Source: a bacterium
GTDB lineage: Bacteria; SZUA-182; DTGQ01; JAFGSM01
Direction: 5' to 3'
Assembly: GCA_049472295.1 (NCBI GenBank)
Contig: JBLIRM010000002.1
Coordinates: 1 to 48,800 of the forward strand
Length of the DNA stretch: 48,800 nucleotides
Shown here: piece after piece, positions 3,936 to 36,662 of the stretch
Numbering within the stretch: position 1 is the first letter of the stretch
Layout: every line of letters starts with the position of its first letter
Position numbers and translations under genes: made by a program
The notes under the pieces: generated by a model
What the model was told of the DNA's origin: nothing
The model's database searches: none
The model's input: only the letters and a program-made list of their open reading frames with translations

Positions 3936-6599
3936 TCAATTGCGATTCAATCTCCAGTCATAATCCTGGAAATCGATTGTGACAGTATCTCCCTTTTCTT
4001 GTAGGAATCCTTTATCTTTATCATTATGTAAATACCGGGAAACAAACCTCAGTCTTTCAGACTGCGTCTTTCCAAAATCCTCCGCATACCATTTGAATAT
4101 GCGTGAAAGCGAGACACGATTTCTTTCCCGGTCTATGATGACGCCGCCGGAATTCAGAAAGGTCTCCGCAGCTATGGCCAATTCCGCATCCAGGTTCTCA
4201 GCAGTATAGACCTCTATAGGCGGGCAGGAAGAGGAAGCACACACCAGGGCAAAGTGTACTCGCGGCTCAATGGGTGAAATGACCTGTTTGAGCCTTCGAT
4301 CCCTTCCCTTAAATAGTTTGAAAATGGCATTGGGAGGGCGTCTATTCCCACGCAGGATGCCATGTTCGATATCATCAGGACTGAAGAGGCTTTTCCCGAT
4401 CTGATAGTGAATCACCCTGAAAAAGTTCCGGACCTCTTTCACGGAGTCCCTGATGCCCAGTTCGATCACCCCATGGATCACGATGGCATTATACAGATTG
4501 ATCCAGAAGGCCAGCCTTTCCTTTCTGTCTTTTAGGGAATCCAGATCCAGCGATTTCAGGTTGTTACTCAACTCCAGATACTCTTTATAAACCTTTGAAT
4601 GAGCCATCTGTTCGTAGGCCACCCTGCCGCGTTTTGTGTCAAAAAACGCCCCTCTCAGGATGTTGATCATCCGCTTCAGCTTTGGTGCAATCTCATTGGG
4701 CCGGATATGTTCTCTTGGATCACCCTCATTGAGGACAACCTTACTGGTCAGCAAAAACCTTTTACCGCGGGAATCCTCTATGGTCTCAGCTGTCCCTGCC
4801 ATATCACCTTTCGCCCTATTCAGGGCGATAACACTGTTAATATAACCGATGTGGGTAAATGCCTGGGGAAAATTCCCCAGGGCCTCTTTCCATTTCACGT
4901 CATATTCCTCTGAGAAAAGGCCAAGAGGATTGGCTGCCTTTTCCAGAAGACGAAGGAGGGATTCCGCTTCATCCAGACGATTCAAACCGAGCAGGCAATC
5001 CACCAGCCAAAATGTACAAAGCAAAAAGGTCCCCTCTTCTCCGGACAATCCATCATCCGCAATATAGCGATAGAGGAGGCCGTCATGGCTCAATTCCTTT
5101 TGTATGGCCTCAATGGTTGCAATCACACGGGGATCATCAAATGGAAGAAAGCCCATGATAGGTATCAATAGATTGCTCGAATCCAGGGCATCCGTCTCAT
5201 AGTGCTGAACATAGGCATTTTTCTCCTCACTCCATCCCCTTTCCATCACCTCTTTCCTGATGGCCTTTTTGGTCTCCTCCCATTTTTTTAGATCCCCGGG
5301 AAAACCGTATCTCCGGGCGATTGTAATCCCCCGGTCCAGGGCCACCCAGCACATCACCTTGGAATAAACAAAGAGGTAAGTCCCGCCGCGAACCTCCCAA
5401 ATCCCGGAATCCTTCTCCTGCCAATGCTCAACAACATAATCGCAGATGTCACGCAAAAAAGGCCAGAGGTGAACATCGATCTTCCCCACATAGTCCGAAA
5501 GCTTCAATGCGGCATCCATGATCTCTCCGTATATATCAAGCTGCTTTTGATTTGCGGCCTCGTTTCCAATCCGAACGGGACGAGATCCCTTATATCCGTC
5601 AAGATGGGATAGTGTCTCCTCAGGCATGTTCTTCTCTCCACGAAGGCCGTACATGATTTGTAAAGCGCCGGCCCCGTGCTCGGAGATCAGCCTTTCTATC
5701 CATCTAAGATAACCCTCTGTCTCGGAAAGGTGGCCCAGATTATAGAGGGCCTTCAATGTAAAGGATGTGTCGCGCACCCAGGTAAAACGGTAATCCCAGT
5801 TTCTCACTCCTCCGATCTCCTCAGGCAGGGATGTGGTTGCAGCAGCAGCGATGGTACCTATAGGGCCGTAATAGAGGAGTTTCAGAACCAGTGCGGAACG
5901 GTTGAGCATCTCCCGATAAGGCCCGAGATTGACGGACCGGCCCGTTTCACTCCTTTTGAGCCACTGCCTCCAGAATTTTTCAGTGTCCAGTAAGACCTTC
6001 TCCGCAACTCCCGGGTCGATCCCATGACATTGCTTAGCCCCGTAAATCAAATGAAACCATATGAGATCCCCTTCTGATAAATCCCAATCCGCTGATGCGA
6101 TCTCCTTTTCTATCTTCAAAGGACGGGTACAGGAGAGCGTGATGCTCTCACCATCCCCCTGTGCGATAAGCCCTCCTCTGGATTTTTTGACCGAGGTATG
6201 GGCCATGGCATAATTGAACCTGGGTTCAAAAACGACCTTTATCCGCATACCTCCTTTAGTCATCTTTACTAATCGATACAGTTCATGCTTTACTGCCTCC
6301 GGTTCCTCTTCATCACTATAGGGCACTGGCATGAAGTCGATCAGTTCCATTAATCCGGATCTTGTTCTGAACCTGGTCTTTAAGATATTTGTGTCCGGCA
6401 GATATTCAGCAACCGAATCATAATCTTCTGAAGGAAAGATAGAGAATCGGCCCCCCTTTTTATCGTCAAGAAGTGCCCCGAATATGCTCGGATCATCGAT
6501 ATGAGGGAAACACAGCCAGTCGATTGAACCATCAATGCCAATCAGGGCGATGGAATGTAAGTTGCCGATGATGCCGTAATCGCTGATTTTTTTATACAT
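3936..6599 (-). CDS. glycoside hydrolase family 15 (glucoamylase/trehalase-like) fused to a C-terminal DUF547 domain
   Basis: 887 aa. The N-terminus MYKKISDYGIIGNLHSIALIGIDGSIDWLCFPHIDDPSIFGALLD, plus WDYRFTWVRDTSF, is typical of bacterial/archaeal GH15 enzymes. The last ~250 aa (LAFWINLYNAIVIHG...HFALVCASSSCPP...FKWY) match the DUF547 signature. Confidence 0.85.
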   Translation of the reverse strand: MYKKISDYGIIGNLHSIALIGIDGSIDWLCFPHIDDPSIFGALLDDKKGGRFSIFPSEDYDSVAEYLPDTNILKTRFRTRSGLMELIDFMPVPYSDEEEPEAVKHELYRLVKMTKGGMRIKVVFEPRFNYAMAHTSVKKSRGGLIAQGDGESITLSCTRPLKIEKEIASADWDLSEGDLIWFHLIYGAKQCHGIDPGVAEKVLLDTEKFWRQWLKRSETGRSVNLGPYREMLNRSALVLKLLYYGPIGTIAAAATTSLPEEIGGVRNWDYRFTWVRDTSFTLKALYNLGHLSETEGYLRWIERLISEHGAGALQIMYGLRGEKNMPEETLSHLDGYKGSRPVRIGNEAANQKQLDIYGEIMDAALKLSDYVGKIDVHLWPFLRDICDYVVEHWQEKDSGIWEVRGGTYLFVYSKVMCWVALDRGITIARRYGFPGDLKKWEETKKAIRKEVMERGWSEEKNAYVQHYETDALDSSNLLIPIMGFLPFDDPRVIATIEAIQKELSHDGLLYRYIADDGLSGEEGTFLLCTFWLVDCLLGLNRLDEAESLLRLLEKAANPLGLFSEEYDVKWKEALGNFPQAFTHIGYINSVIALNRAKGDMAGTAETIEDSRGKRFLLTSKVVLNEGDPREHIRPNEIAPKLKRMINILRGAFFDTKRGRVAYEQMAHSKVYKEYLELSNNLKSLDLDSLKDRKERLAFWINLYNAIVIHGVIELGIRDSVKEVRNFFRVIHYQIGKSLFSPDDIEHGILRGNRRPPNAIFKLFKGRDRRLKQVISPIEPRVHFALVCASSSCPPIEVYTAENLDAELAIAAETFLNSGGVIIDRERNRVSLSRIFKWYAEDFGKTQSERLRFVSRYLHNDKDKGFLQEKGDTVTIDFQDYDWRLNRN

Positions 6600-7317: not shown

Positions 7318-7496
7318 GACTTTCTTTTTGAAATATCCCGGATAATGGATCGCAGGATGACAACCTTTTTTTAGATTGATGGATGTGTAAAACTGCCTGT
7401 TTCAATTCCTGTTTGTTGTTATACTGATAAGGAGAAAGACGTCTCTTTGAAATGGAATAAAACAAGGTTGTAATGACCATTCAAGAGGGAGAAGGC

Positions 7497-7748
7497 ATGG
7501 AAAAGCCCGTAAAGATCTATACTCTCAGCACATGTTCCCATTGTAAGGCCACCAAAAAGTTGCTGGACGACTGCCATGTGGAATACAAATTTACGGATGT
7601 GGATTTGCTTGAAGGGGCCGAAAGACAGGCCATCCTTGAAGAGGTGAAAAAGCTGAATCCCAGATGCTCCTTCCCTACAATCATTATTGGAGACAGGGTG
7701 ATTGTAGGATACAAGGAGGCCGAGATCAGGGAGGCCCTCGGACTATGA
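7497..7748 (+). CDS. glutaredoxin-like (thioredoxin-fold CxxC) protein
   Basis: 83 aa from the ATG at 7497. VKIYTLSTCSHCKATKKLL carries the CxxC active site, followed by FPTIIIGDRVIVGY. Its stop overlaps the next start (ATGA at 7745-7748). Confidence 0.8.
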   Translation: MEKPVKIYTLSTCSHCKATKKLLDDCHVEYKFTDVDLLEGAERQAILEEVKKLNPRCSFPTIIIGDRVIVGYKEAEIREALGL

Positions 7749-8077
7749 GCGAAGTAGAAAAGTTATACGAGATGTTAAAAAATATCCAGGAGTCGAAGGG
7801 TTACCCATTTAACAAGGACAAAGAGAGGGTTTTTGAACTCCTGGAGGCCCTTCTTCTGAACAAGAAACGTTATGGCTACATGTCCTGTCCGTGCAGGCTG
7901 GCATCCGGGGACCGGGAAAAGGACAAGGACATCCTCTGTCCCTGTGTTTACAGAACACCTGATGTAGCGGAATATGGCAGTTGCTACTGCAACCTTTATG
8001 TTTCGAATGAATGGAACGAAGATAAAATCCCCCACCCTTACGTGCCTGAAAGAAGGCCCATCGAAAAGATGCCCTAA
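7745..8077 (+). CDS. ferredoxin:thioredoxin reductase catalytic (beta) subunit-like protein
   Basis: 110 aa. It has the CPC-x15-CPC-x13-CYC cysteine pattern (CPCRLASGDREKDKDILCPCVYRTPDVAEYGSCYCNLY) of FTR catalytic subunits and is translationally coupled to the Grx-like gene. Confidence 0.85.
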   Translation: MSEVEKLYEMLKNIQESKGYPFNKDKERVFELLEALLLNKKRYGYMSCPCRLASGDREKDKDILCPCVYRTPDVAEYGSCYCNLYVSNEWNEDKIPHPYVPERRPIEKMP

Positions 8078-8540: not shown

Positions 8541-10115
8541 ATGGGGTCTTATTTCGTACTACCTTTCAGTGGATATTCCATGTATCCCCTCATCAAGCCG
8601 GGGGATCGACTGGTTGCCAAACCCGTTCACGCCCATTCCCTCAGGGTGGGTGATATTGTGGCCATCCCGGGTCCCGATAATGGACATGACATGGTCCATC
8701 GACTCATTAATGTATCACCCGATGGCAGAGGGATGACCAAGGGGGATGCCATGCTGAAGCCGGATCACAAGCAGGTCGAACTCACAATGGTTAGGGGCAG
8801 GGTTGAGGCGATCATCAGGGGACGCCGCTTGATCCCCATTTCGTCAGACCAGGGACCCGATATCAAAGGATTATATGGAAAGCTCGGTCAGAAAGGCATC
8901 TCTTACAGCTTTTTGAAATTAAAAAACAAGCTTCTATTTAATCAACTCCTTTCGAGGGATCAAAGCAAGAGACACAGCAAGGAAAGGGCCTTTATTCTCT
9001 CCACACTCCGGGGGAAGGTCCCGCCAGATCTTACGTCACCCGACTGGGATGCATTAACGGAAATGGCTTACAGGGAGGGTGCGACAGGGATTCTTTACAT
9101 GCGGCTCAAGGAGCAAGGAATCCCGGATGCCGTGCTTCTCCCATTCGAAAATTATCAACGCAATACCACCTTTATGAACCTGATCCATATAAGGGCAGTG
9201 GAAAGGCTGGAAGAGGCCTTAAAGGGAAAAGGGATCCAGGTAATGACCTTTAAGGGGGTCTGTCTCCTGGACATCGCCTACCCGCAGTTCGGGATGCGTT
9301 TCATGGACGACATCGACCTCATCGTGCGGCCGGAAGACCTGGAGCCATTTATGGGGATACTTCGCATTCTGGGTTATGAAAATCCAGGGCCATTATCCCA
9401 TCTATTCGTCAAAGACAATGTCACTATTGATCTTCACACCCATGCCCTGCACACAGATCGCATCGGAGGCAGGGGGGCCCTCTTCCCCTCCGGGATGGAG
9501 CCGCTTTGGGCATCCGCCATACCCTGGAAAAGCGGTTATCAGTATATCAAGCGGCCCGATGACGCAGACCATGTCCTTCTCCTCTGCCTGCACCTCTTAC
9601 AGCATTCCTTCTCCAGGCTCATCTGGTTGGAGGATATCCGCCGCCTGTTGGATCAAGGGGACCCGCACTTCTGGGAAAAGCTCAGAAACAGGTCCATCCT
9701 TTTCAAGCAGCGAAAGTCCCTTTCCTATACCCTCTATCTCCTGAGACTGCTTTTCAATTACGAACCTCCCCAGGAGTCAGTACTCAGCCTCTTATCTCAA
9801 AATATCTCCAAGGCTGAAAGGATGCTTCTGAACATCTATGCCACGGGCACACCGCTCAATCGCCTGGGCGTCCTCCTGGAATATTTCAGTATAACAAGAT
9901 TCAGAGATCGAATCCGATTTGGTTGGGAGACGCTGTTCCCAAAAAACAATGTCCTTAACCAGGAATTTGGCGTGTCTTCAATAGTTGAAAGGCTTTTCTT
10001 TTACCCTGGGCGTTTTTTTGAATTGATGAGCCTTTTGATCAAACTGATGCTCTCGATCCCGGGGGCAATGATCCGATCCACAAGATGTAAAAGGATAAAA
10101 AATACAGATGAATAA
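8541..10115 (+). CDS. fusion protein: N-terminal SipW/Sec11-type S26 peptidase domain plus 'uncharacterised nucleotidyltransferase' (NTP_transf_5-like) domain
   Basis: 524 aa. The first ~100 aa carry SGYSMYP (Ser nucleophile), GDIVAI, VHRLI (His) and TKGDAM, which is the motif order of SipW-type peptidases, and there is no N-terminal TM anchor. Residues ~170-330 (REGATGILYMRLKE...MTFKGVCLLDIAYPQFGMRFMDDIDLIVRPEDLEPFMGILRILGYE) look like the nucleotidyltransferase family found in lasso/RiPP clusters. Confidence 0.7.
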   Translation: MGSYFVLPFSGYSMYPLIKPGDRLVAKPVHAHSLRVGDIVAIPGPDNGHDMVHRLINVSPDGRGMTKGDAMLKPDHKQVELTMVRGRVEAIIRGRRLIPISSDQGPDIKGLYGKLGQKGISYSFLKLKNKLLFNQLLSRDQSKRHSKERAFILSTLRGKVPPDLTSPDWDALTEMAYREGATGILYMRLKEQGIPDAVLLPFENYQRNTTFMNLIHIRAVERLEEALKGKGIQVMTFKGVCLLDIAYPQFGMRFMDDIDLIVRPEDLEPFMGILRILGYENPGPLSHLFVKDNVTIDLHTHALHTDRIGGRGALFPSGMEPLWASAIPWKSGYQYIKRPDDADHVLLLCLHLLQHSFSRLIWLEDIRRLLDQGDPHFWEKLRNRSILFKQRKSLSYTLYLLRLLFNYEPPQESVLSLLSQNISKAERMLLNIYATGTPLNRLGVLLEYFSITRFRDRIRFGWETLFPKNNVLNQEFGVSSIVERLFFYPGRFFELMSLLIKLMLSIPGAMIRSTRCKRIKNTDE

Positions 10116-11802
10116 CCATCTTCAGATCATAAAAAGGATCATGGAAAAAGGCAGATCATACATCCCGGCATTCATAGCCCTTGCAGGTATGAATGCGGTC
10201 CTGGTACCTGTGGAATTCTATGGGCTCCTTCTTTCGCGAAAGATGATCGATCGAGGTTTCCTGCTCCGGAACTGGCCTACGATCAAAGGGATCATATTGA
10301 TCCTGTTTGGCCTTTTTGTTCTTCGAAGCCTCATCAATTACGCAAATGCAATTTTGTCCACGAATGTTCAGCTTCGAATGAATCAGAGATTCCAGAACGA
10401 ACTCTTCTCCCATCTTTTGCATCTGCCTATGCCTTTCTTTATGGAAGAATCCACCGGTCAACTGATGTCACGCCTTCTGGATGATGCCACACTTTTTTCA
10501 GCCATCCTAAAGGCAATCTTCCACAATGCACTTCTCGACCCGCTGAAACTCCTCCTCCTGACAACACTTCTTGCATATTTCAATCTTCGCCTCTGTTTGA
10601 TTATGGTGGTTTCAACCTTTTTTACCTTTCTGGTGATCCGCTGGATGGGGCATAGATTACGCGAAATCTCAAAAAGGACTCAGGAGAAGAACGCAGCCAT
10701 ATATAGTTTTGTGGCACAGATATTCTCTAACATCGAACTGATCAAATCAAAAATCACAGAAAAAAAGGAATCCGAAAGATTTCATCATCACATTGATGAG
10801 TTCATCGAACTGGCTCTCAAGACCTTAAAGATTTCACTCATTGCACAGCCCATCTTACAGATCCTGAAATATGCCACCCTCGGCATTGTGTTCATTTACG
10901 GAAGCTGGATGATATCAAAGGACATCCTGACCATCGGTACACTCACCATCTTCCTGGGAGCGACCTACCTCTTTTTCAATACACTGAATTCCCTCGGAAA
11001 TACCTATGGAGATCTGAGTGAGAATCTGGCCCGCATGGAAATCCTTTTCTCGATTCTGGATACCCCGCCAGAAGGGTCCGAAAAACAAACTTCCGTGATC
11101 GTCACGCCCCATATCAATACGATTGAATTCAAGCATGTATCCTTCGGATACCATCCCTCACAGCCGGTCCTGAACGATCTCTCCTTTTCCGTGAACAAGG
11201 GAGAGACCCTGGGTATCACCGGTCAAAGCGGCAGCGGCAAGACCACCATCATCCGCCTCCTGGTCGGATTTTATGAACCGAACACAGGTGAAATCAATCT
11301 GGACAAGGTATCCCTTCGCCACTGCGATCTGGCTACTCTCCGGCAAGCCATAGGGATCGTCTTTCAGGAAAACCTCATATTCAATGACTCCGTCAGGTAC
11401 AATATCGAATATGGCCTCGGAGATATCCCTGAATCAAAGATTATTCAGGCTGCCAAAACGTCCCAGGCCCATGAATTCATCCGGGCCATGCCCGGACAGT
11501 ATGAGACCATCATCGGTGAACAGGGGAAAAGGCTCTCAGGCGGTGAAAAGCAACGATTGGCCATTGCCAGGGCCATTGTGGCAGAACCCGAGATCCTAAT
11601 CCTGGATGAAGGCACCTCTTTTCTGGAGGTGGAACAGGAAAAGGCCATTCTAAAAAGGATCAGGCATATGAGAAAGGAAAAGATCACCATCATTATCTCA
11701 CACCGGCTTTCAGCCATGGAATCGGTGGATAGGATGCTGACGCTGGATAATGGCCGGATGATCGAGACAAATTTTCGGGCACTGGCAGGGATTTCTTATT
11801 GA
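10108..11802 (+). CDS. ABC exporter, fused permease/ATPase (type-I exporter, no C39 peptidase domain)
   Basis: 564 aa. An N-terminal six-TM-like region is followed by Walker A GQSGSGKTT, signature LSGGEKQRLAIARA, Walker B ILILDEGTS and H-loop IIISHR. It overlaps the upstream gene by 8 nt. Confidence 0.9.
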   Translation: MNNHLQIIKRIMEKGRSYIPAFIALAGMNAVLVPVEFYGLLLSRKMIDRGFLLRNWPTIKGIILILFGLFVLRSLINYANAILSTNVQLRMNQRFQNELFSHLLHLPMPFFMEESTGQLMSRLLDDATLFSAILKAIFHNALLDPLKLLLLTTLLAYFNLRLCLIMVVSTFFTFLVIRWMGHRLREISKRTQEKNAAIYSFVAQIFSNIELIKSKITEKKESERFHHHIDEFIELALKTLKISLIAQPILQILKYATLGIVFIYGSWMISKDILTIGTLTIFLGATYLFFNTLNSLGNTYGDLSENLARMEILFSILDTPPEGSEKQTSVIVTPHINTIEFKHVSFGYHPSQPVLNDLSFSVNKGETLGITGQSGSGKTTIIRLLVGFYEPNTGEINLDKVSLRHCDLATLRQAIGIVFQENLIFNDSVRYNIEYGLGDIPESKIIQAAKTSQAHEFIRAMPGQYETIIGEQGKRLSGGEKQRLAIARAIVAEPEILILDEGTSFLEVEQEKAILKRIRHMRKEKITIIISHRLSAMESVDRMLTLDNGRMIETNFRALAGISY

Positions 11803-11917
11803 AGATTCAAATTTTTGATTGATAACGCCCTCCAACGTTTCAAACCCGATTAACCGAAAAGTATATAGGTTTTTTCCCTCTGGATCGATAACACTTTGCA
11901 AGGAGGTCATACATAAA

Positions 11918-12196
11918 ATGGCAGAGCAAAAGAAACCGGTTGCCAATCCTTCAATAGTGCTCAGAGAGGAGTTCGATGACTGGGCCATCCTTTTTGATCC
12001 TGATTCCGGTCATGCCTTTGGGCTCAATCCTGTGGGCGTGTTTATATGGAAACACCTGGACGGAGACCATACCATCGAGGATATATACAAAGAGATCAGA
12101 GCAAAATACAAGGACATACCACATAAAACAAAGAAAGACATCAAAGATTTTGTCCGAAACCTTCTGGAAAAGGGTTTAACGGGATACGAGGCCTAA
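11918..12196 (+). CDS. PqqD-family peptide chaperone (RiPP recognition element)
   Basis: 92 aa from the ATG at 11918, with an AGGAGG RBS at 11901-11906. ILFDPDSGHAFGLNPVGVFIWKHLDGDHTIEDIYKEI...DIKDFVRNLLEKGL matches the PqqD pattern. It ends 7 nt upstream of a radical SAM gene. Confidence 0.8.
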   Translation: MAEQKKPVANPSIVLREEFDDWAILFDPDSGHAFGLNPVGVFIWKHLDGDHTIEDIYKEIRAKYKDIPHKTKKDIKDFVRNLLEKGLTGYEA

Positions 12197-12203
12197 GACC
12201 GAC

Positions 12204-13304
12204 ATGAAAATCATGAAAACACCCAGGTCAGTGGACATTGCCATAACGAACCAGTGCAATCTCCGGTGTACATATTGCAGCCATTTTACAAGCGCCGGTG
12301 ATGTGGACCAGGACCTTCCTCTGAAAGAATGGCTCCAATTCTTCAAAGAACTGGGCCAATGTGCGGTCATGGATCTGACCCTCGAGGGCGGGGAGCCATT
12401 CTGCCGCAAGGACCTGAGAGAGATCATTCAGGGGATCGTGGAAAATCATATGCGCTACCTGATACTGAGCAACGGGACTCTGATCACGGAGGATATGGCC
12501 GCCTTTCTCTCCTCCACCGGCCGGTGTAACGGGGTGCAGGTTTCTGTGGACGGCTCGACCCCGGCCACCCATGATGCAAGCCGGGGGCAAGGCACATTCT
12601 CAAAGGCCATCCAAGGGATCAAATCCCTTCAAAAACAGGATATCCCTGTTCATGTCCGCGTGACCATCAACAAATACAATATAGGGGACCTTGATGACAT
12701 TGCGGATCTGCTTTTGGACGAGATCGGCCTTGAGGATTTTTCCACCAATGCCGCCTCTTATATGGGCCTTTGCCGTCAGAATGCCGGGAATATCCAACTC
12801 AGCATAAAAGACCGCTCCGTGGCAATGGAGGCCCTTTTAAAACTTAACAAAAAATACCAGGGACGGATCAATGCCTCAGCAGGTCCCTTGGCTGATTTAA
12901 TACATTGGTCCGAGATGGAAAAGGCCCGCAAGGAGAATCTGGGATGCATGCCCGGGGGGGGATTTTTAACCGGATGCGGTGGGCCGATGAGCAAACTGGC
13001 CGTGCGGGCTGACGGTGTGATGGTCCCCTGTATCCAGTTGAGCCATATCGAACTGGGGCGGATCAACAGGGATAGTCTCCAGGAGATATGGCAGTCGCAT
13101 GAACGACTCGGGAGGCTCAGGCAGCGGTTTCAAATCCCTTTGAGCCGATTCGACTTCTGCAAGGGGTGCGATTACATGGATTATTGTACAGGGAACTGTC
13201 CTGCACTGGCCTATACCATGGTAGGGGAGGAGAATCATCCCAGTCCCGATGCCTGCTTCAGGCGATTCCTGGAGGAGGGGGGGAGCCTGCCGGATGAAAG
13301 ATAG
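12204..13304 (+). CDS. radical SAM / SPASM-domain peptide maturase 1
   Basis: 366 aa. CNLRCTYC (CX3CX2C) sits at the N-terminus. The C-terminal region has GCGGP...VPC followed by CKGCDYMDYCTGNC (CX2CX5CX3C, the canonical SPASM motif). Confidence 0.9.
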   Translation: MKIMKTPRSVDIAITNQCNLRCTYCSHFTSAGDVDQDLPLKEWLQFFKELGQCAVMDLTLEGGEPFCRKDLREIIQGIVENHMRYLILSNGTLITEDMAAFLSSTGRCNGVQVSVDGSTPATHDASRGQGTFSKAIQGIKSLQKQDIPVHVRVTINKYNIGDLDDIADLLLDEIGLEDFSTNAASYMGLCRQNAGNIQLSIKDRSVAMEALLKLNKKYQGRINASAGPLADLIHWSEMEKARKENLGCMPGGGFLTGCGGPMSKLAVRADGVMVPCIQLSHIELGRINRDSLQEIWQSHERLGRLRQRFQIPLSRFDFCKGCDYMDYCTGNCPALAYTMVGEENHPSPDACFRRFLEEGGSLPDER

Positions 13305-14532
13305 ATATCCGTTGAACCAGATATATTTCTATCTGACCGAGGGGTGCAACCTGCGATGCCGTCACTGCTGGATTGCACCCAAATACCAGACGGAATCCCA
13401 AACCTGCCGGACACTGGACCCGGACCTTTTCCAAAAGATCTTGAATCAGGCAAGGTCATTAGGGATCTCAGGGGTGAAATTAACCGGGGGTGAACCGCTT
13501 CTTCATCCCAGGATCCCCGAGATCCTGGAGATTGTGCGTCATGAGGCCCTTCAGCTCACTGTGGAGACCAACGGGGTCCTCTGTACGCCGGAGCTTGCCC
13601 GTGCCATGGCAGACTGCAAGCATCCTTTTATATCGGTAAGCCTGGACGGCGCCGATGCCGGAACCCATGAGTGGGTCAGAGGGGTGAGCGGCTGTTTTGA
13701 TGCCTGCCTGGAAGGCATCCGGAATCTTGTTAGGGCAGGCCTTCATCCGCAGATTATCATGACGGTCATGCGCCGGAATAAGGAGCAGATGGAGCCTGTG
13801 GTGCATCTTGCAGAGCACTTAGGGGCGTGTTCGGTCAAGTTCAATGTGGTCCAGCCCACAGCCAGAGGGGAAAAGATGCACCAGTCCAATGAGGCCCTGA
13901 GCATTGAGGAGCTTCTGGATCTGGGGAGATGGGTGGAGGATACCCTCTCTGTCTCGACCCGTCTGTCCGTTCGATATTCCCATCCGCCGGCCTTTCGTCC
14001 GCTGGGAAGCATGTTTGGAGAACAAGGAGACGGATGCAGTGTCTGCGGGATTCTGAATATTCTGGGGGTCCTGGCTGACGGTTCCTATGCCCTTTGCGGT
14101 ATCGGCGAGACCATGCCCGATCTGGTTTTCGGCCATGCGTCATTGGACCCCTTGGAGGAGATCTGGAAAAATACCCCTGTGCTCTTGGAGCTCCGAAAGG
14201 GTCTTCCCCAGCGTCTTGAAGGGATCTGCGCTGACTGTATCATGAAGGGGATCTGCCTGGGAAGCTGTATTGCCCAGAACTATTACCGCAGCAAGAATAT
14301 CTGGTCACCATTCTGGTATTGTGAGGAGGCATTGAACCAGGGCATCTTTCCCGAGAACCGGATGAGCACCAACCCATATCCCCATTGTAAAAAAGCAAAC
14401 AAACCTATGAAAGAAAAGCACCATAAAGGCCAAAACAAAAGGGCCTTTACTGGGCGTAACACAGAAAAGGCAGGGATACCGAACAGGTATCGGTCTGCCC
14501 GGAGGGGAGATAACCATGTCCTTACCATATGA
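13294..14532 (+). CDS. radical SAM / SPASM-domain peptide maturase 2
   Basis: Start taken at the ATG at 13294 (MKDRYPLNQIYFYLTEGCNLRCRHCW), overlapping maturase 1 by 11 nt. SPASM motif CADCIMKGICLGSC. A ~50-aa basic, low-complexity C-terminal tail overlaps the next ORF. Confidence 0.85.
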   Translation: MKDRYPLNQIYFYLTEGCNLRCRHCWIAPKYQTESQTCRTLDPDLFQKILNQARSLGISGVKLTGGEPLLHPRIPEILEIVRHEALQLTVETNGVLCTPELARAMADCKHPFISVSLDGADAGTHEWVRGVSGCFDACLEGIRNLVRAGLHPQIIMTVMRRNKEQMEPVVHLAEHLGACSVKFNVVQPTARGEKMHQSNEALSIEELLDLGRWVEDTLSVSTRLSVRYSHPPAFRPLGSMFGEQGDGCSVCGILNILGVLADGSYALCGIGETMPDLVFGHASLDPLEEIWKNTPVLLELRKGLPQRLEGICADCIMKGICLGSCIAQNYYRSKNIWSPFWYCEEALNQGIFPENRMSTNPYPHCKKANKPMKEKHHKGQNKRAFTGRNTEKAGIPNRYRSARRGDNHVLTI

Positions 14533-14740
14533 GAAACCCGTCCTGGTCCCATTCCGGTTTGATCAGACTCAAGTGGGGAGAGGGAAATGCGCAACCGGCT
14601 CCGGGGATTCCGGGAATTGCCAGCCCGGAACGGCACCTGCAGGGAAATGCCTTTCCGGTACGGATGATTTGGTGATACCAAAAAAATGCGAACCCGGGGC
14701 AGTCGCATCAAATAAATGTACTGCAGGTGGCGTAAACTGA
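14516..14740 (+). CDS. candidate RiPP precursor peptide, five [K/N]-C-x-x-G repeats
   Basis: 74 aa with a GGAGGGGAG RBS at 14502-14510. A Cys-free N-terminal part (MSLPYEKPVLVPFRFDQTQVGRG) is followed by GKCATGS, GNCQPGT, GKCLSGT, KKCEPGA and NKCTAGG, with Cys at residues 25/35/45/58/68. It lies immediately after the two maturases. Confidence 0.7.
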   Translation: MSLPYEKPVLVPFRFDQTQVGRGKCATGSGDSGNCQPGTAPAGKCLSGTDDLVIPKKCEPGAVASNKCTAGGVN

Positions 14741-15645
14741 ATAAAAAAACGCAATCAAAAAAGGGAAAGGGATACCTGATCCGCCTGGCCGATGGCCAGG
14801 TCTGGCATATGACTGCCTCCGAAGAGATCTCTCCCTGGGTCGGGAGGCTGGCATCCATGATGGAACTCGGAGAATATCAATCCAAGGGATACCCCAGGCT
14901 GATATTCGTCCGGGGAAGATCAATCGAAACACCGGCTAATTCAATGGCACAAAAAAATCTCCCCGAAAAGGGCTGGGGCAGCAGAGACTTCAGGAGTGTT
15001 CAATTATGGTTCCATCCGGAGGTGCCGGATGTTATCTGTGAAATCGGACCCGGCTCCGATCATGAACTGGACATTCTGAGGATGTGGCTGTCCCTTGATC
15101 CTATTTATCAGAGGGCACAGGAATCGGGTGGCCTCCCCTTTCATGCGGCATTAATCGAAAGGGATGGGATGGGTGTATTACTGGCTGCCCCCGGAGATAC
15201 GGGGAAATCTACCTGTTGCATGCGAATTCCACACCCATGGCGGGCCTTATGCGATGACGAGGCCCTTGTGGTGCAAAATGATCAGAAACAATATCTGGTG
15301 CACCCTTTTCCGACCTGGAGTGATTACCTCTGGCGAAGATCGCGGCGCACATGGAATGTGCAGCATTATGTCCCCTTAAAGGCACTGTTCTTTCTGAAAC
15401 AGGCTGAGGTGGATGAAGCGCTTCCCATGAAGGAGAGCCAGGCTGCATTATATGCCAACAATGCAGCGATACAGGTATCACGCCGTACCTGGCGACATAT
15501 GGATCGAACGGAGGTCACGGTCACCAGAAAAAGGCTATTCGAAAACGCCTGCCAGCTCGCCAAGGCAATCCCGGCATTCATCCTGAGCGTAAGCATATCC
15601 GGAAGATTCTGGGAGGAGATGGAAAAGGTCATTGAAGATAGATAA
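14716..15645 (+). CDS. HPr-kinase-like P-loop protein (HprK-related / ScmC-like)
   Basis: 309 aa. FHAALIERDGMGVLLAAPGDTGKST (P-loop at 15193-15213) parallels the HprK/P C-terminal domain G-V-L-I-x-G-x-S-G-x-GKS. The start is uncertain: the ATG at 14716 lies inside the precursor ORF, and the next ATG is at 14809. Confidence 0.65.
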   Translation: MYCRWRKLNKKTQSKKGKGYLIRLADGQVWHMTASEEISPWVGRLASMMELGEYQSKGYPRLIFVRGRSIETPANSMAQKNLPEKGWGSRDFRSVQLWFHPEVPDVICEIGPGSDHELDILRMWLSLDPIYQRAQESGGLPFHAALIERDGMGVLLAAPGDTGKSTCCMRIPHPWRALCDDEALVVQNDQKQYLVHPFPTWSDYLWRRSRRTWNVQHYVPLKALFFLKQAEVDEALPMKESQAALYANNAAIQVSRRTWRHMDRTEVTVTRKRLFENACQLAKAIPAFILSVSISGRFWEEMEKVIEDR

Positions 15646-16273
15646 ACGAAAAAAGCCGGCAAAAGTGACATCCATGAACTTCACAGGTCCGAGTATGCGT
15701 CCCATACTCAAGCATGGAGACCTGCTTCAGGTCATTCCCTATGACGGGCAAAAAATTCATCCAGGGGATGTTATTGTTTTTGTTCCTCCGGAAGGGGAGC
15801 AGAGGATTGTTCACCGCGTCATCTCAATCGGCTCCGAAGGCATCCGGACCCGGGGAGACTATTGCACGCATATCGATCCTTGGATACTCAATCCTCACCA
15901 TGTCATCGGACGGGTAATCTATGCCATCCGAGGGAAAAAACAGCAGAGGATATACGGAGGATTTTGGGGGTGTTTATCTGCCATGGCTGTCAGGGCTTTT
16001 CATCTGACAGACGGCATCATATCTTCCCTGTTCAGACCAGTCTATTACTGGATGGCCTGCAAAGGCAGCATCAGACGCTGGACTAAAGGTCTTTTCCAAA
16101 CCCGGGTGCTTTCTTTTAAAAGACCGGATGGCACGGAACTTCAGATTCTTATAGGGAGACGCGTTGTGGGAAGGTGGCTTCCGGGCAAGGATGGGTGGCA
16201 TATCCGGAGACCCTTCCGTCTCTTTGTGAATGAGGCATCCTTGCCGGAGAATCCCTCCAAATCATCAAAATAA
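15632..16273 (+). CDS. SipW/Sec11-type S26 peptidase-like protein without N-terminal anchor
   Basis: GPSMRPILKHGDLL, GDVIVF, IVHRVI and TRGDYC occur in the same order as in the N-terminal domain of the 8541 gene. The C-terminal ~100 aa are unassigned. The track start is a TTG at 15632; an alternative ATG is at 15674. Confidence 0.7.
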   Translation: MKIDKRKKPAKVTSMNFTGPSMRPILKHGDLLQVIPYDGQKIHPGDVIVFVPPEGEQRIVHRVISIGSEGIRTRGDYCTHIDPWILNPHHVIGRVIYAIRGKKQQRIYGGFWGCLSAMAVRAFHLTDGIISSLFRPVYYWMACKGSIRRWTKGLFQTRVLSFKRPDGTELQILIGRRVVGRWLPGKDGWHIRRPFRLFVNEASLPENPSKSSK

Positions 16274-16328: not shown

Positions 16329-16355
16329 GGGTGAAAAATGGAGGTAAGGGAAAGG

Positions 16356-17654
16356 ATGAGATGTATCCTCATCATTCTGGATGGTATCGGTGACAGGGGC
16401 CAACCGGCCTTTAAAGGAAAGACACCCCTTCAGGCGGCATCCACGCCAAATCTGGACAGGCTTGCAGGCCTCGGTATGTGCGGCCTCTATCACAGCAGCC
16501 TTCAGGGCATCCCCATGCCCAGTGAAATCGCCCATTTTCTCATGTTCGGCTATGACAGCGATGAATTTCCCGGACGGGGGTTAATCGAGGCCCTGGGGTA
16601 CGGCATCCCGATGAAAGATGGGGATGTGGCGCTCCTTGCCCGGATCTTCTCCGTCTCCCCCTGGGAGAATCTTTTGGTACTCACCCATGAAGATCCTGAG
16701 ATCGATAAGGAGACCTGCCGGACCCTGCATGACGAGATCAGCTACTTCAAGGATGAAGCCATTGAGATGGAATTCCATCCCACCCGAGGGATCCAGGGGA
16801 TACTCCGGATGCGTGGGGAGGTATCCGCCCGGATCACGGATTCAAACCCCATCCGGGAGGGAAGGCCACTGATGGAGGTATGTCCGTATTTGGAAAGCAT
16901 CCAGGATCCGAGTGCAATCAAAACAGCCAGGGCATTGAACCGGTATCTTTTGTGGTGCCACAAAAGACTCGCCGCACATCCGGTCAATAAAGAGAGAACA
17001 AGAAAGGGCCTCCTCCCTATCAATGCTCTGGGGACCCAGAGACCCGGAATCAAAGGACCGATTGTCCCCTTTAATGAAAAATGGGGGCTCAGGGGGCTTT
17101 CCATTGCATCGGGTCCCGTGTTCTGGGGGCTTGCGAAATCCATCGGCATGGATATGATCAAGGAAAAGGACACCCGGGACCCGGGGACCGATTTCAGGCT
17201 GCGGCTTGCGCATGCCCAAAAGGCCCTGGATTACGATTTTATCCATGTTCACACGAAGATGCCTGATGTGGCATCCCACACCAAAAATCCCGATTATAAG
17301 AAACAGATCATAGAGCAGCTCGACAAGGCCCTTTCCTTTGCTGTGGATCATTTTGTTTCCGATCCGGAGATACTGATTGTGGTCACAGCGGATCATGCCA
17401 CTCCGAGCAGCGGTCCCATGATCCATTCGGGGGAAACCGTCCCTATCCTTATGGCCGGGAAGAATATCCGGAAGGATGCTGTAAAAGCATTCGATGAGGT
17501 CGCCTGTGCCTCTGGTGCTCTGGGGCTTGTCAAGGGAAAAGAATTGATGTACCTCGTTCTGAATCTCATGGACCGGGCCAAGCTGAAAGGGCTCATGGAC
17601 TCCCCGGTGGACCAGCCATACACGCCGGGTCCTTACAGACCTTTGAAGATCTGA
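16356..17654 (+). CDS. apgM: 2,3-bisphosphoglycerate-independent phosphoglycerate mutase, archaeal (ApgM) type
   Basis: ILIILDGIGDRGQPAFKGKTPLQAASTPNLDRLAGLGMCGL at the N-terminus, then HVHTKMPDVASH and VVTADHATPS. Start at ATG 16356 or ATG 16338. Confidence 0.75.
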   Translation: MRCILIILDGIGDRGQPAFKGKTPLQAASTPNLDRLAGLGMCGLYHSSLQGIPMPSEIAHFLMFGYDSDEFPGRGLIEALGYGIPMKDGDVALLARIFSVSPWENLLVLTHEDPEIDKETCRTLHDEISYFKDEAIEMEFHPTRGIQGILRMRGEVSARITDSNPIREGRPLMEVCPYLESIQDPSAIKTARALNRYLLWCHKRLAAHPVNKERTRKGLLPINALGTQRPGIKGPIVPFNEKWGLRGLSIASGPVFWGLAKSIGMDMIKEKDTRDPGTDFRLRLAHAQKALDYDFIHVHTKMPDVASHTKNPDYKKQIIEQLDKALSFAVDHFVSDPEILIVVTADHATPSSGPMIHSGETVPILMAGKNIRKDAVKAFDEVACASGALGLVKGKELMYLVLNLMDRAKLKGLMDSPVDQPYTPGPYRPLKI

Positions 17655-33566: not shown

Positions 33567-36500
33567 ATGATCGAAGAAATCAAAGCAAAAAACGGGTTAA
33601 AACTCCTGGTTGAAAAAAGGCGTATCAATGATCTGACCGAGATATCCCTTCGAATGGAAAACAAAACAGATTGCCTTTTGCACTGGGGGCTCTCCCGTCA
33701 TGTTCAATCCACTTGGGAAACCCCTCCAAAATCACTCTGGCCCGAAGGCACAAAAATGTTCGGGAGATCGGCCCTCCAGACCCCATTCTTGAAGCAAAAT
33801 GGGGAAAATCGCATCCTGATCAGGCTGGATCGATCAGTGGATCATCCGATTCTGGATTTTGTCCTGTTCTTTCCTGAAGATGGTCGATGGGACAATAACC
33901 AAGGAAGGAATTACCGCATTAAACTGCCTAAACCCGCAGGATTGCCCCCCTCTGATCCCCGAATCCATCCCGGATCCTTTGAATATTCGGAGATTGCTGA
34001 AGAAATCATTCAGGCAGAGACCGGAAGGGATTCATGGACGCTCATGCACCGGTTCAATCTGTGTTATCACTTGCTGGACAAGGTTGATAAACATCCGGAA
34101 GGATTGGCGACCCTTTTCGTATGGTTGCGTTTTTCCGCCATCAGGCAACTGACATGGCAGCGCAATTTCAATACCCAGCCAAGAGAATTGAGCTATGCCA
34201 TGGATCGCCTGACACAGAGGTTATCCGAAATCTATATCAGGAGTGAGCCGGAAAGCCGGGAGTTCATCCGTTTGATATTCACAACTATGGGACGGGGCGG
34301 AGAAGGTCAACTAATCAGGGATGAGTTTCTGAACATCATGCACAAACACAAGATTAAAGAGATTGCCGGCAGCTTTATGGAGGAATGGCATCAGAAGATC
34401 CATAACAACGCCACACCCGATGATATCATAATCTGTGACGCATACCTGGCATTCCTGAGAAGTGATGGCAATCTGAACCTCTTTTACAAAACGGTTGCAG
34501 ATGGAGGCGTCCCCAGAAAGAGACTGGGGAGTTTTGAGCGACCTATCCTGGCCGATCCGGAATTCTATCCGGATATCAAAGAGGCATTGATCCTTGATTT
34601 AGAGAATTATTTAAAGATCCTCAAATCCGTCCATTCAGGGACCGATCTCGAAACAGCCATCGATTCTGCGAGGGATCACCTGGATAAAAAAACATTCGGC
34701 CTGCTCAATTTCATCTGGCTGCACCGCAATGCTCGCCCGGAGAAACTGGAAAACCTTATGGCCAAGATCGCCCAGGTGCGCTCCCATTTGAATCAGCTCT
34801 TGCCTCAGGACCGTGACTCCGAAAGGATCAGGGATCTGATTCTTCTGGATCTGGCGCTCGATGCATTCCTGCGCTCTTTGATCGAGCGGCATATTCATAC
34901 TCGTCTGAGCGGGGATCAATTGGTGGATATGATCGCCGTGGTGGTTCAAAACCTCATCATCTCTCATAATGGGCATGAATTTCAGGCCTGTTTTCATCAC
35001 TGGATGCGATTAAAAGAGATGCCCAACTTTGGCAAAGACTGGTCACTCCATGCTAAGTCCGTCGTGGACAGGCTTCTTCGCACCATTGGCAATTTCAACG
35101 ACCGCTATTACCGCATCATCCAGCCCAAGGCCGAACATCTGGGCAACGCATTTCAAGCCGATGAATGGAGCATTACACTCTTTGCCGAGGAAGTGGTGCG
35201 GGGAAGGGCCGTATTCATACTCTCGATGCTTTTGCGTCACATCGAGCCGAAGCTCCGAAAGGCCGCTAACCTGGGCCAATGGCAGGTCATCAGCCCCGGG
35301 CAGGGGACGGGTCGTGTAAAGATGGTGGATCAATTAAGATACATCCAGGGCAAGACATTTTTGACCCCCACCGTCATTATTGCGGATAAGATCACAGGAG
35401 ACGAGGAGATCCCTGAAGGGGTCACAGCCCTTATAACACCGGATGTGACGGATATCGTCTCCCATATCTCGGTCCGTGCCAGGAATAAAGGCATCCTTTT
35501 CGCCACCTGCTATGATACCGGAATACTTGAACAACTCAGATCATCCAAGGGGCGTTTCATTCATCTCAGATCCGCTCCTTCGGGTGAGGTAGTTGTCATG
35601 GAAGTGCAGGAAAACCAAGAGATTATGCAGGCTTCTGGGTCCAAGGCAGAAAGTGCGAATCCCATCCGGCCGGACTTTACCCTCAATCCCATCCCTTCAA
35701 AGGACTTCAATGACAGACGGGTCGGGGGAAAATCCCTGAACCTGAAAAATCTGGAAGGAAAAATGCCTGAATGGATTCATATGCCCGCTTCTGTAGGAGT
35801 GCCCTTCGGGATCTTGGAAAGGTTGCTGGAAGAACCCGAGAATCAGGCTGCTTCGAAACGGAATCAATCCCTTATACCCAGGATTCACGAAAACCCCGGA
35901 GAGATCCTCGATGAGATTCGAAGGAATCTGCTGGGCCTGAATCCACAGCAGGGATTCATATCATCCCTCCGGCATGTCATGGAAGACAAAGGGATGAAAT
36001 GGCCTGAAGAGTGGCAGAATGCCTGGATGTGCATTAAACGCGTATGGGCATCCAAGTGGAATGAAAGGGCCTATCTGAGCCGAAAGGCCTGGGGCATTCC
36101 GGACAAAGACATCTTTCTGGCCGTGCTCATCCAGGAGGTGATCGAGGCGGAATATGCCTTCGTGATCCATACGGTCAATCCCTTCACAAAGGATCGAAAC
36201 GAAATTTATGCCGAGGTTGTGCTCGGCCTTGGAGAAACCCTGGTGGGAAACTATCCTGGGAGGGCCCTTGCCTTTTCCTGTAATAAAGAGAAACCCGGAC
36301 CCCGGATTCTGGCATATCCCAGTAAAAGCACTGCTCTTTACGGAGGCGGGCTGATTTTCAGGTCTGATTCAAACGGAGAAGACTTGAGCGGATATGCCGG
36401 CGCCGGTCTCTATGACAGTGTAATGCTCCCTCCCCCTCGGAAGGTCCCCCTGGATTACACAAAGGATCCTCTGTTATGGGATGAAAATTTCAGGACGGAC

Positions 36501-36662
36501 CTTCTCATGCACATCTGCGAAATCGGCCTGGCAGTCGAGAGGGCCTTTGGCAATACACCCCAGGACATCGAGGGCGCCTGCGCCAAAGGAGAATATTATG
36601 TGGTTCAAAGTCGGCCTCAGGTGGGTTTAAAGGGGGCGGGGTTTGGAAATGAGTCAGAATAA
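33567..36662 (+). CDS. alpha-glucan,water dikinase (GWD)-like protein
   Basis: 1031 aa. The N-terminal CBM45-like block is LLHWGLS...W..PP...WPEGT...ALQTPF...FVLFFPEDGRWDNNQGRNYRI. FMEEWHQKIHNNATPDDIIICDAYL is almost identical in pattern to plant GWD. The phosphohistidine motif is TPDVTDIVSHISVRARNKGILFATC (His codon at 35463-35465). The ATP-binding PPDK_N-like domain is C-terminal (GGKSLNLKNL...VPFG...WASKWNERAY...GLGETLVG...EGA). This domain order is GWD-type, not PEP-synthase-type. Confidence 0.85.
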   Translation: MIEEIKAKNGLKLLVEKRRINDLTEISLRMENKTDCLLHWGLSRHVQSTWETPPKSLWPEGTKMFGRSALQTPFLKQNGENRILIRLDRSVDHPILDFVLFFPEDGRWDNNQGRNYRIKLPKPAGLPPSDPRIHPGSFEYSEIAEEIIQAETGRDSWTLMHRFNLCYHLLDKVDKHPEGLATLFVWLRFSAIRQLTWQRNFNTQPRELSYAMDRLTQRLSEIYIRSEPESREFIRLIFTTMGRGGEGQLIRDEFLNIMHKHKIKEIAGSFMEEWHQKIHNNATPDDIIICDAYLAFLRSDGNLNLFYKTVADGGVPRKRLGSFERPILADPEFYPDIKEALILDLENYLKILKSVHSGTDLETAIDSARDHLDKKTFGLLNFIWLHRNARPEKLENLMAKIAQVRSHLNQLLPQDRDSERIRDLILLDLALDAFLRSLIERHIHTRLSGDQLVDMIAVVVQNLIISHNGHEFQACFHHWMRLKEMPNFGKDWSLHAKSVVDRLLRTIGNFNDRYYRIIQPKAEHLGNAFQADEWSITLFAEEVVRGRAVFILSMLLRHIEPKLRKAANLGQWQVISPGQGTGRVKMVDQLRYIQGKTFLTPTVIIADKITGDEEIPEGVTALITPDVTDIVSHISVRARNKGILFATCYDTGILEQLRSSKGRFIHLRSAPSGEVVVMEVQENQEIMQASGSKAESANPIRPDFTLNPIPSKDFNDRRVGGKSLNLKNLEGKMPEWIHMPASVGVPFGILERLLEEPENQAASKRNQSLIPRIHENPGEILDEIRRNLLGLNPQQGFISSLRHVMEDKGMKWPEEWQNAWMCIKRVWASKWNERAYLSRKAWGIPDKDIFLAVLIQEVIEAEYAFVIHTVNPFTKDRNEIYAEVVLGLGETLVGNYPGRALAFSCNKEKPGPRILAYPSKSTALYGGGLIFRSDSNGEDLSGYAGAGLYDSVMLPPPRKVPLDYTKDPLLWDENFRTDLLMHICEIGLAVERAFGNTPQDIEGACAKGEYYVVQSRPQVGLKGAGFGNESE

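Follow-up and report, generated by a model that had tools for sequence, protein, structure and literature searches.

The question raised by a 48,800-nt stretch of bacterial DNA (positions 1 to 48,800 of contig JBLIRM010000002.1, assembly GCA_049472295.1; hereafter the window) is whether a 74-amino acid (aa) open reading frame (ORF), located at 14516-14740 on the plus strand and overlapping both of its neighbours, is a gene and, if so, what becomes of its product. ORF 14516-14740 is a real, conserved gene inside a SynChlorMet (SCM) cassette and represents a divergent new member of the SCM precursors, which are defined in databases but chemically uncharacterised. We consider it probable that the ORF encodes an SCM-type precursor of a ribosomally made peptide with post-translational modifications (RiPP), the repeated modules of which would most likely be cross-linked into small thioether rings. 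A preliminary description of the locus had proposed a precursor with a leader and a repeat core adjoining two radical S-adenosylmethionine (SAM) maturases, a proposal which is supported by the results presented here.

The translation, MSLPYEKPVLVPFRFDQTQVGRGKCATGSGDSGNCQPGTAPAGKCLSGTDDLVIPKKCEPGAVASNKCTAGGVN, divides into a leader of residues 1-23 (MSLPYEKPVLVPFRFDQTQVGRG; 14516-14584), from which Cys is absent, and a core of residues 24-74 (14585-14740, including the stop codon) composed of five C-x-x-G modules and a six-residue tail. Core Cys residues occupy positions 25, 35, 45, 58 and 68 (codons at 14588, 14618, 14648, 14687 (TGC) and 14717 (TGT)), giving spacings of 10, 10, 13 and 10 residues. 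The translation, Cys positions and spacings were all reproduced as previously described, as were the Lys or Asn preceding and the x-x-Gly-[S/T/A/G] following every Cys, the residues D31, N34, D50, D51, E59 and N66, and the strong ribosome-binding site (RBS) GGAGGGGAG, a sequence unique within the window and situated at 14501-14509, with 6 nt separating it from the precursor ATG. Within the leader, YEKPVLVPF, with Y5, P8 and L10, corresponds to the family motif Y-E-K-P-x-L-[VI]-x-[LF]. When the 51-residue core was shuffled 200,000 times, all five Cys fell within C-x-x-G units in 13 shuffles and a minimum Cys spacing of ≥10 was observed in 265.

A homologue search with the single sequence recovered only the peptide itself and one relative, 86% identical and located in the same position between ScmF and ScmC on a JGI contig (L001), and profile and context-based searches were therefore needed. 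Searching with the adjacent gene product, ScmC, identified 8 genomic loci (Desulfobacterales, Desulfomonilaceae, Aerophobetes, Chlorobium and other metagenome-assembled genomes) and at least 440 metagenomic loci, 80 of which were kept. A strict pattern, requiring the leader motif and, in the same open frame, two C-x(2,3)-G units, was matched by an ORF adjacent to ScmC in 61 of 71 loci for which ≥300 nt of upstream sequence was available; the ORF is upstream of ScmC in 60 of these 61. No match was obtained in reversed-sequence controls, and the pattern occurs once in the window, at ORF 14516-14740. Thus, homologous small ORFs do accompany orthologous cassette genes, with a conserved leader and 2-15 Cys, as the preliminary description had anticipated for a genuine precursor. 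When 1.84 billion cluster representatives were searched exhaustively with the family profile, 1,311 of them matched at E ≤1e-3; among the 150 matches listed, most are 50-120 aa in length and align from the leader onward. In an alignment of 40 peptides (A3), no variation is seen at Pro8, Cys25, Gly28, Cys35 or Gly38, and conservation at Cys45 and Gly48 is ≥90%; Pro8 is invariant and the Y-E-K-P-x-L motif conserved in both this and a further alignment (A4). Every C-x-x-G unit is retained between the window peptide and L001, with a nonsynonymous rate (dN) of 0.039 in the leader and 0.12 in the core and similar synonymous rates (dS), a comparison which is weak alone as it involves a single pair of sequences, 90% identical in nucleotides. 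In several loci, two or three precursor genes with differing repeat numbers are present, in tandem or flanking (L004, at 7412-7827, and L012, L015, L019 and L082).

Other arrangements were also observed. ScmD lies near or next to ScmC in three loci (L003, L009 and L078) in which ScmE and ScmF were not detected in the stretch examined, and in one of these (L009) the precursor is located downstream of ScmC.

The frame is short, overlaps both neighbours and yielded two exact-word homologues in the single-sequence search, as might be expected of an untranslated chance ORF at the ScmF-ScmC junction, and a 191-aa minus-strand ORF (14283-14858), which could then be the true gene, remains open in L001. 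We accord this explanation next to no probability. Dozens of cassettes, and 1,311 clusters, contain the same leader-plus-repeat ORF, with identities of 23-43%, and the window ORF has a strong RBS, a Cys-free leader and a core periodicity well beyond that of the shuffles. The minus-strand ORF is antisense to three conserved genes, of which it is a shadow, and its openness was assessed only against a sequence 90% identical. Together, the A3 alignment, the profile matches and the 61 of 71 loci effectively refute a chance origin. A structured RNA or tRNA at ORF 14516-14740 was also considered and rejected, no Rfam family or tRNA being detected there, while scanning for promoters and terminators gave results at chance level and was uninformative.

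The precursors obey a strict set of rules, derived from 189 distinct peptides and, for certain values, from a smaller set of 63 peptides containing 275 Cys. The family leader conforms to [YW]-[EQD]-x-P-x-L-[IV]-x-[LF], and in 178 of the 189 peptides the first Cys follows the leader Tyr at a distance of 17-21 residues (20 in the window peptide). Peptides contain 2-15 Cys with a mode of 4-5, the window peptide having 5, and 654 of 732 gaps between successive Cys (89%) are 9-11 residues long. Gly is present at +3 relative to Cys in 84-90% of the repeats at each index, and in all five modules of the window peptide; in the smaller set, 271 of the 275 Cys have Gly at +3 or +4. In 143 of 189 peptides, including that of the window with 6, the tail beyond the last Cys comprises 6-8 residues, a length which fits each Cys requiring its own downstream segment, either as acceptor or as recognition element. 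Other positions vary. Position +4 is a mixture of Gly, Ser, Thr and Asn, Ala occurs at +6 in 26-66% across repeats and in 51-66% of non-first repeats, and the first repeat takes the form C-x-x-G-[ST]-G-D, with Asp at +6, in 32 of the 189 peptides, including that of the window. The third module of the window peptide is longer than the others (…GTDDLVIPKKC) and has counterparts in peptides with a Pro-containing hydrophobic penultimate module (…GTSQALPILC, …GTNVAPVIC). Gly and Ala are favoured at -2 and -4 relative to the first Cys across the family, a preference from which leader cleavage is predicted after Gly23, with small residues at P1 and P3.

Several features which appeared significant in the window peptide did not extend to the family. 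Lys or Asn at -1 is present at just 28% of Cys. Ser or Thr at +4, previously proposed as a kinase or transferase target, is found at 42%, with Gly as common at this position. The acidic and amide residues suggested as thioether acceptors have no fixed, conserved position over all repeats, Asp at +6 in some first repeats being a partial exception. Similarly, the repeat visible in the DNA, GGGAAATGC at 14582 and 14642 and GGGAATTGC at 14612, had been interpreted as internal duplication of a modification module; the matches are just 9-14 nt long and Tandem Repeats Finder detected no 30-nt array. Since only short 9-14-mers recur, as recurring Lys-Cys or Gly-x-Cys codons would produce, the periodicity is a property of the protein and does not reflect a recent duplication.

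Association of the leader with a recognition protein is suggested by two database proteins, P0248 (230 aa) and P0284 (216 aa), in which a ScmD (PqqD) domain, a ScmA-like leader and a Cys-repeat core are fused in a single ORF, the N-terminal domain of P0248 being 49% identical to the window ScmD. These fusions would provide independent evidence that ScmD and the leader work together, with a lost stop codon or an assembly error as another possible origin of P0248 and P0284. The earlier suggestion that the leader could be bound by a RiPP recognition element (RRE) is thus consistent with its Y-x-x-P-x-L motif, of the type bound by PqqD-type elements, with the separate ScmD of the cassette and with the natural ScmD-precursor fusions.

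Other candidate relatives were of a different nature. Three long database proteins of 770-1062 aa (P0144, P0145 and P0178) were rejected, as their perfect 10-residue tandem repeats (FSCHAGTEFA, DCPDGSSDVK and QCTDGREAES) mimic the periodicity of the profile. A 264-aa protein (P0181) contains ∼22 imperfect Cys modules, mostly C-x-x-G, with no recognisable leader, and may be a truncated or giant family member.

The cassette surrounding the precursor has the gene order D-E-F-precursor-C, all on the plus strand between 11819 and 15645, and its identity was determined against the curated NCBIfam models (cutoffs of 100, 400, 400, 125 and 35 bits for ScmD, ScmE, ScmF, ScmC and ScmA, respectively). 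ScmD (11918-12196) is a PqqD-like RRE protein which scores 135 bits on TIGR04248 and matches PF05402; its ORF opens at a TTG at 11819 and the ATG at 11918, preceded by an AAGGAGG RBS, is the likelier start. ScmE (12204-13304) and ScmF (13249-14532) are both radical SAM/SPASM proteins, scoring 612.6 bits on TIGR04250 and 612.9 bits on TIGR04251. Each contains a CxxxCxxC motif, at residue 18 in ScmE and residue 33 in ScmF, and a complete seven-Cys SPASM motif. Motif inspection revealed an N-terminal RRE in neither maturase, and leader recognition would thus come from ScmD. ScmC (14716-15645), a P-loop protein with the HprK/PEPCK fold, scores 314.9 bits on TIGR04249, and its homologues are labelled 'SynChlorMet cassette protein ScmC' (Pfam PF27840) by public pipelines at JGI and NCBI. 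The start of ScmC overlaps the final 25 nt of the precursor, suggesting translational coupling. By four of the five curated models, the cassette belongs to the SCM family. The motif had also been described as matching neither the SCIFF and anSME patterns nor any recognised sactipeptide core. With respect to SCIFF this stands, as TIGR04252 (ScmA) is the sole NCBIfam match of the peptide at E ≤0.01; the motif is not, however, unclassified, as the ORF occupies the ScmA slot of a cassette already defined by TIGR04248-TIGR04252 and PF27840.

The ScmF tail was also observed to differ from its relatives. Residues 373-427 form a basic, low-complexity extension of ∼55 residues beyond the end of the model at residue 372, which is present in L001 and has no counterpart in most relatives. 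The sequence encoding it overlaps the precursor ORF by 17 nt (14516-14532).

What, then, is done to the core? The closest solved structure to ScmE is SkfB (E 5.4e-23), a sactisynthase, and the relatives of ScmF in the PDB are BlsE, PqqE and SkfB. StsB forms sactionines joining Cys to the C-alpha of Gly (PMC10288494) and, since Cys and Gly are the sole conserved residues of the SCM module, the simplest model is one Cys-Gly ring per module. In the pathway we propose, ScmD would bind the Y-E-K-P-x-L leader and present the core to ScmE and ScmF, possibly acting as a pair or complex, a behaviour for which TrnC and TrnD, two radical SAM enzymes acting as a complex, provide a precedent (PMC12093266). 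Each ∼10-residue module would be modified once, at its Cys, a radical SAM-dependent thioether cross-link being the likeliest modification and the conserved Gly (+3 or +4) providing the simplest acceptor through its C-alpha, as in a sactionine. The expected outcome would be five small, local rings arranged as beads on a string, with a mass change of -10 Da.

From this cassette and precursor, links of the ranthipeptide type could instead be formed, in which the Cys sulfur is joined to the C-beta or C-gamma of a Ser, Thr, Asn, Asp or Ala side chain located at approximately +4 to +6. Ser, Thr and Asn are abundant at +4 and +5, and both the Ala at +6 of the later repeats and the Asp at +6 of some first repeats, that of the window included, lie within this range. 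No side-chain position, however, is conserved near the level of Gly at +3, and in the fourth and fifth repeats of the window peptide +4 is occupied by Ala or Gly and +5 by Val or Gly. ScmE does match the PapB maturase model (NF047865) but at 82.9 bits, far under the cutoff of 340. We regard side-chain links as unlikely and retain Cys-Gly thioether rings as the preferred product.

A number of observations weigh against assignment of the ORF as an SCM precursor carrying such rings. On the ScmA model, TIGR04252, the peptide scores 20.1 bits (E 5.4e-4, residues 18-48), below the cutoff, and all 18 relatives tested also fall short of it, the highest reaching 25.3 bits. As this cutoff is not reached, the precursor assignment rests on position and family-wide homology, and annotation pipelines would not name the window peptide. 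Nevertheless, the ORF is the only protein in the neighbourhood matching this model, which has 49 positions vs the 74 aa and five Cys modules of the window peptide, and, as the peptide and all 18 relatives fail it, the curated model is too narrow. The maturases are also distant from characterised sactisynthases: ScmE scores 104.3 bits on the SkfB model (cutoff 300) and 93.3 on StsB (cutoff 625), and ScmF 90.7 on StsB and 68.3 on AlbA (cutoff 850). Reaction chemistry is not predictable from distant radical SAM similarity (PMC10288494), and the best matches of ScmE and ScmF outside the SCM models are the heme and pyrroloquinoline quinone (PQQ) enzymes AhbD, NirJ and PqqE. Instead of serving as acceptor, the Gly may be conserved because a turn or steric constraint demands it. 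With respect to tailoring, the matches of the ScmC fold to PEPCK and HprK have modest TM-scores (0.3-0.5), and the window peptide ends in Asn, lacking the C-terminal Ser targeted by lasso peptide kinases. A C-terminal Ser was rejected as a kinase target for this family, only 24% of which end in Ser.

The nature of these best matches (AhbD, NirJ, PqqE and BlsE), none of which is a RiPP thioether synthase, also bears on whether a genuine precursor might have Cys which are not thioether donors. Here, the Cys might act as ligands, either for the SPASM auxiliary clusters or for a metal bound by the mature product, the reactions catalysed by ScmE and ScmF would be of another kind, such as epimerisation, backbone modification or C-C bond formation, and the product would perhaps be an intracellular or envelope effector, not a secreted antimicrobial. 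An effector role finds some precedent in HxS, another radical SAM repeat-peptide system predicted by Haft, which is reported to have proved an anti-phage effector (PMC13128918), and an ATP-binding cassette (ABC) exporter was detected in just 10 of 89 related loci. Conversely, the repeats lack the conserved aromatic, Lys, His or Val residues used in C-C, ether and cyclopropyl chemistry, with Cys and Gly being the sole conserved module positions. The exporter count is a lower bound, as most of these loci are short contigs, and PADLOC gave no specific defence-system match. We judge this alternative as a whole to be quite improbable, and modification of the Cys by thioether formation remains the favoured reading. 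Membership of the cassette in a defence system was itself rejected, PADLOC having produced only generic viperin (radical SAM) and ABC matches.

The remaining cassette-associated genes suggest how the peptide could be tailored, matured and exported. ScmC contains an invariant G-K-S-T, His143 and Asp180, with the motif H-x(19)-G-K-S-T. It matches the HprK-related kinase A model at E 1.5e-7 (30.8 bits vs a cutoff of 200) and aligns with HPr kinase over the His…G-K-S-T region at E ∼0.03. The AlphaFold2 (AF2) model of ScmC has a pLDDT of 89.3, and Foldseek matched it with phosphoenolpyruvate carboxykinase (PEPCK; E 1e-7) and HPr kinase/phosphorylase (HprK/P; E 1e-4). At the level of fold, and nothing more specific, ScmC may thus be a nucleotide-dependent phosphotransferase, acting as a putative ATP-dependent tailoring enzyme.

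Immediately downstream, at 15632-16273 on the plus strand, lies an S26/SipW-type (Ser-His) peptidase-like protein with GPSMRP...HRV motifs, which scores 25.5 bits on PF10502 (cutoff 22.9) and 48 bits on TIGR02228, just under the cutoff of 51.85. A relative of this stand-alone protein is present in 70 of the 89 related loci, and most of the long loci which were mapped have it immediately following ScmC; the protein is a candidate leader peptidase. A second S26/SipW-like domain is encoded upstream of ScmD by a cassette accessory gene (8541-10115, plus strand), fused to an NTP_transf_5 nucleotidyltransferase domain (PF14907, 150.9 bits, residues 166-406). Sub-threshold signal peptidase I matches are located at residues 8-89 of the fusion, and SM.P…HR motifs of the SipW/archaeal type are found in this S26-like domain as well as in that of the stand-alone protein. 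Relatives of the fusion were found in 20 of the 89 loci. The gene which follows (10108-11802, plus strand) encodes a fused permease and ATPase with Pfam ABC_membrane and ABC_tran domains, an ABC exporter which lacks a C39 peptidase domain and matches NHLP-type bacteriocin exporter models far under their cutoffs; it is the probable exporter of the mature product.

Combined with the core chemistry, these genes suggest the later steps of the pathway. Phosphorylated and glycosylated lasso peptides, in which HPr-kinase homologues phosphorylate the precursor and a nucleotidyltransferase, sometimes fused to a protease, glycosylates the resulting phosphate (PMC8498205), provide the analogy for a phosphate-based decoration which would be added here by ScmC and the nucleotidyltransferase fusion. 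The S26-like peptidase would then cut off the leader after Gly23 and the ABC transporter would export the product. A more elaborate version of this pathway can be offered only tentatively: a string of 2-15 tiny (i to i+3/i+4) Cys-Gly sactionine rings at a 10-residue pitch, installed by a radical SAM pair with a lasso-type leader and RRE and carrying a phosphate- or nucleotide-derived decoration from the HprK/PEPCK-fold enzyme and the peptidase-nucleotidyltransferase fusion, would perhaps represent an undescribed RiPP topology. If this is true, it would constitute a new RiPP class, widespread in anaerobic sediment bacteria and comprising >1,300 sequence clusters.

Comparison with known systems places the cassette between several of them. 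With the SCM cassette itself, the window locus shares ScmD, ScmE, ScmF and ScmC above their cutoffs, the order D-E-F-precursor-C and a small ORF in the ScmA slot, differing in a precursor which scores under the ScmA cutoff and in the additional S26-like peptidase, peptidase-nucleotidyltransferase fusion and ABC exporter. With sactipeptides (StsA/StsB and SkfA/SkfB), it shares a Cys core, a radical SAM/SPASM-type maturase and RRE-dependent leader recognition, and the Cys-Gly linkage pair of streptosactin (StsA/StsB) is also the conserved pair of the SCM modules. Known sactipeptides, in contrast, have nested hairpin rings linking N-terminal Cys to C-terminal acceptors, whereas the SCM core is a tandem array of equal modules, suggesting local rings. 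ScmE and ScmF further differ in having no fused RRE, in scoring far below the SkfB, AlbA and StsB cutoffs, and in being two maturases for one precursor. Freyrasin (PapA/PapB) is built of CxxxD repeats, each closed into a single local ring between Cys and Asp. Its one Cys per short module and its SPASM maturase make it the closest architectural analogue, with one ring per repeat, but its modules are ∼5-6 residues long with a conserved Asp whereas those of SCM are ∼10 residues without a conserved side-chain acceptor. The thuricin CD enzymes TrnC and TrnD are likewise encoded by adjacent radical SAM genes, their products forming a complex to install thioethers; there are two precursors, however, and the maturases have their own leader-binding regions.

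Lasso peptide clusters (paeninodin and pseudomycoidin) share the Y-x-x-P-x-L leader, a PqqD-like protein, an HPr-kinase-like protein, a nucleotidyltransferase and an ABC exporter, and the lasso nucleotidyltransferase can be fused to the leader protease (PMC8498205), paralleling the 8541-10115 fusion. Two radical SAM enzymes and an S26-like peptidase take the place of the lasso cyclase and B2 transglutaminase-type protease, domains of which were detected in no gene between 8541 and 16273. On the lasso PqqD model (cutoff 70), ScmD reaches 36.9 bits, and two of eight related peptides match lasso models below threshold, one (L005) the leader model NF033521 and the other (L006) the paeninodin-family model NF033524. 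Two systems which are defined in databases only are also similar. GeoRSP (TIGR04302/04303/04352) combines a radical SAM/SPASM enzyme, a PqqD-family chaperone and an HprK-related kinase, and the ACGX-repeat system (TIGR04340) a radical SAM/SPASM enzyme with what its family name indicates is a Cys-Gly repeat precursor. The scores of the window proteins (108-116 vs a cutoff of 400 for the GeoRSP radical SAM enzyme, 30.8 vs 200 for HprK_rel_A and 60-86 vs 400 for ACGX) suggest that these are sister systems, not the same family. In its operation, SCM resembles a sactipeptide or ranthipeptide pathway whose parts for recognition and tailoring are of the lasso style, yet it falls within none of these classes.

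In number and diversity, the SCM precursors greatly exceed what is covered by the curated ScmA model, the cutoff of which was reached by none of the 19 peptides tested, vs the 1,311 clusters identified with the family profile. The strict architecture of leader distance, 10-residue pitch, Cys and Gly, and tail length provides a rule for finding precursors and grounds to rebuild the ScmA model, one Cys-Gly ring per module is a testable hypothesis, and an otherwise unannotated 74-aa gene in the window gains a functional annotation. Although SCM is named in databases and pipelines, no report of an SCM product or its chemistry was found in the literature searched, and the reviews and mining papers checked make no mention of the system; many pathways predicted by Haft are still uncharacterised (PMC9062424).

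The remainder of the window encodes ordinary chromosomal metabolism and does not accompany the cassette elsewhere. Directly 3' of the cassette, an apgM-type cofactor-independent phosphoglycerate mutase homologue is encoded at 16338-17654 on the plus strand; as it adjoins SCM cassettes in none of the 89 loci, it is probably unrelated. A GH15 glucoamylase-DUF547 fusion is encoded on the minus strand at 3936-6599, and a response-regulator receiver domain fused to a metallo-beta-lactamase-fold (Lactamase_B_2) domain on the plus strand at 47498-48724. A 1,031-aa protein (33567-36662, plus strand) combines alpha-glucan water dikinase Ig-like N-terminal and phosphohistidine domains with a pyruvate phosphate dikinase (PPDK) ATP-binding domain, an architecture which is that of a plant-type starch-phosphorylating enzyme.

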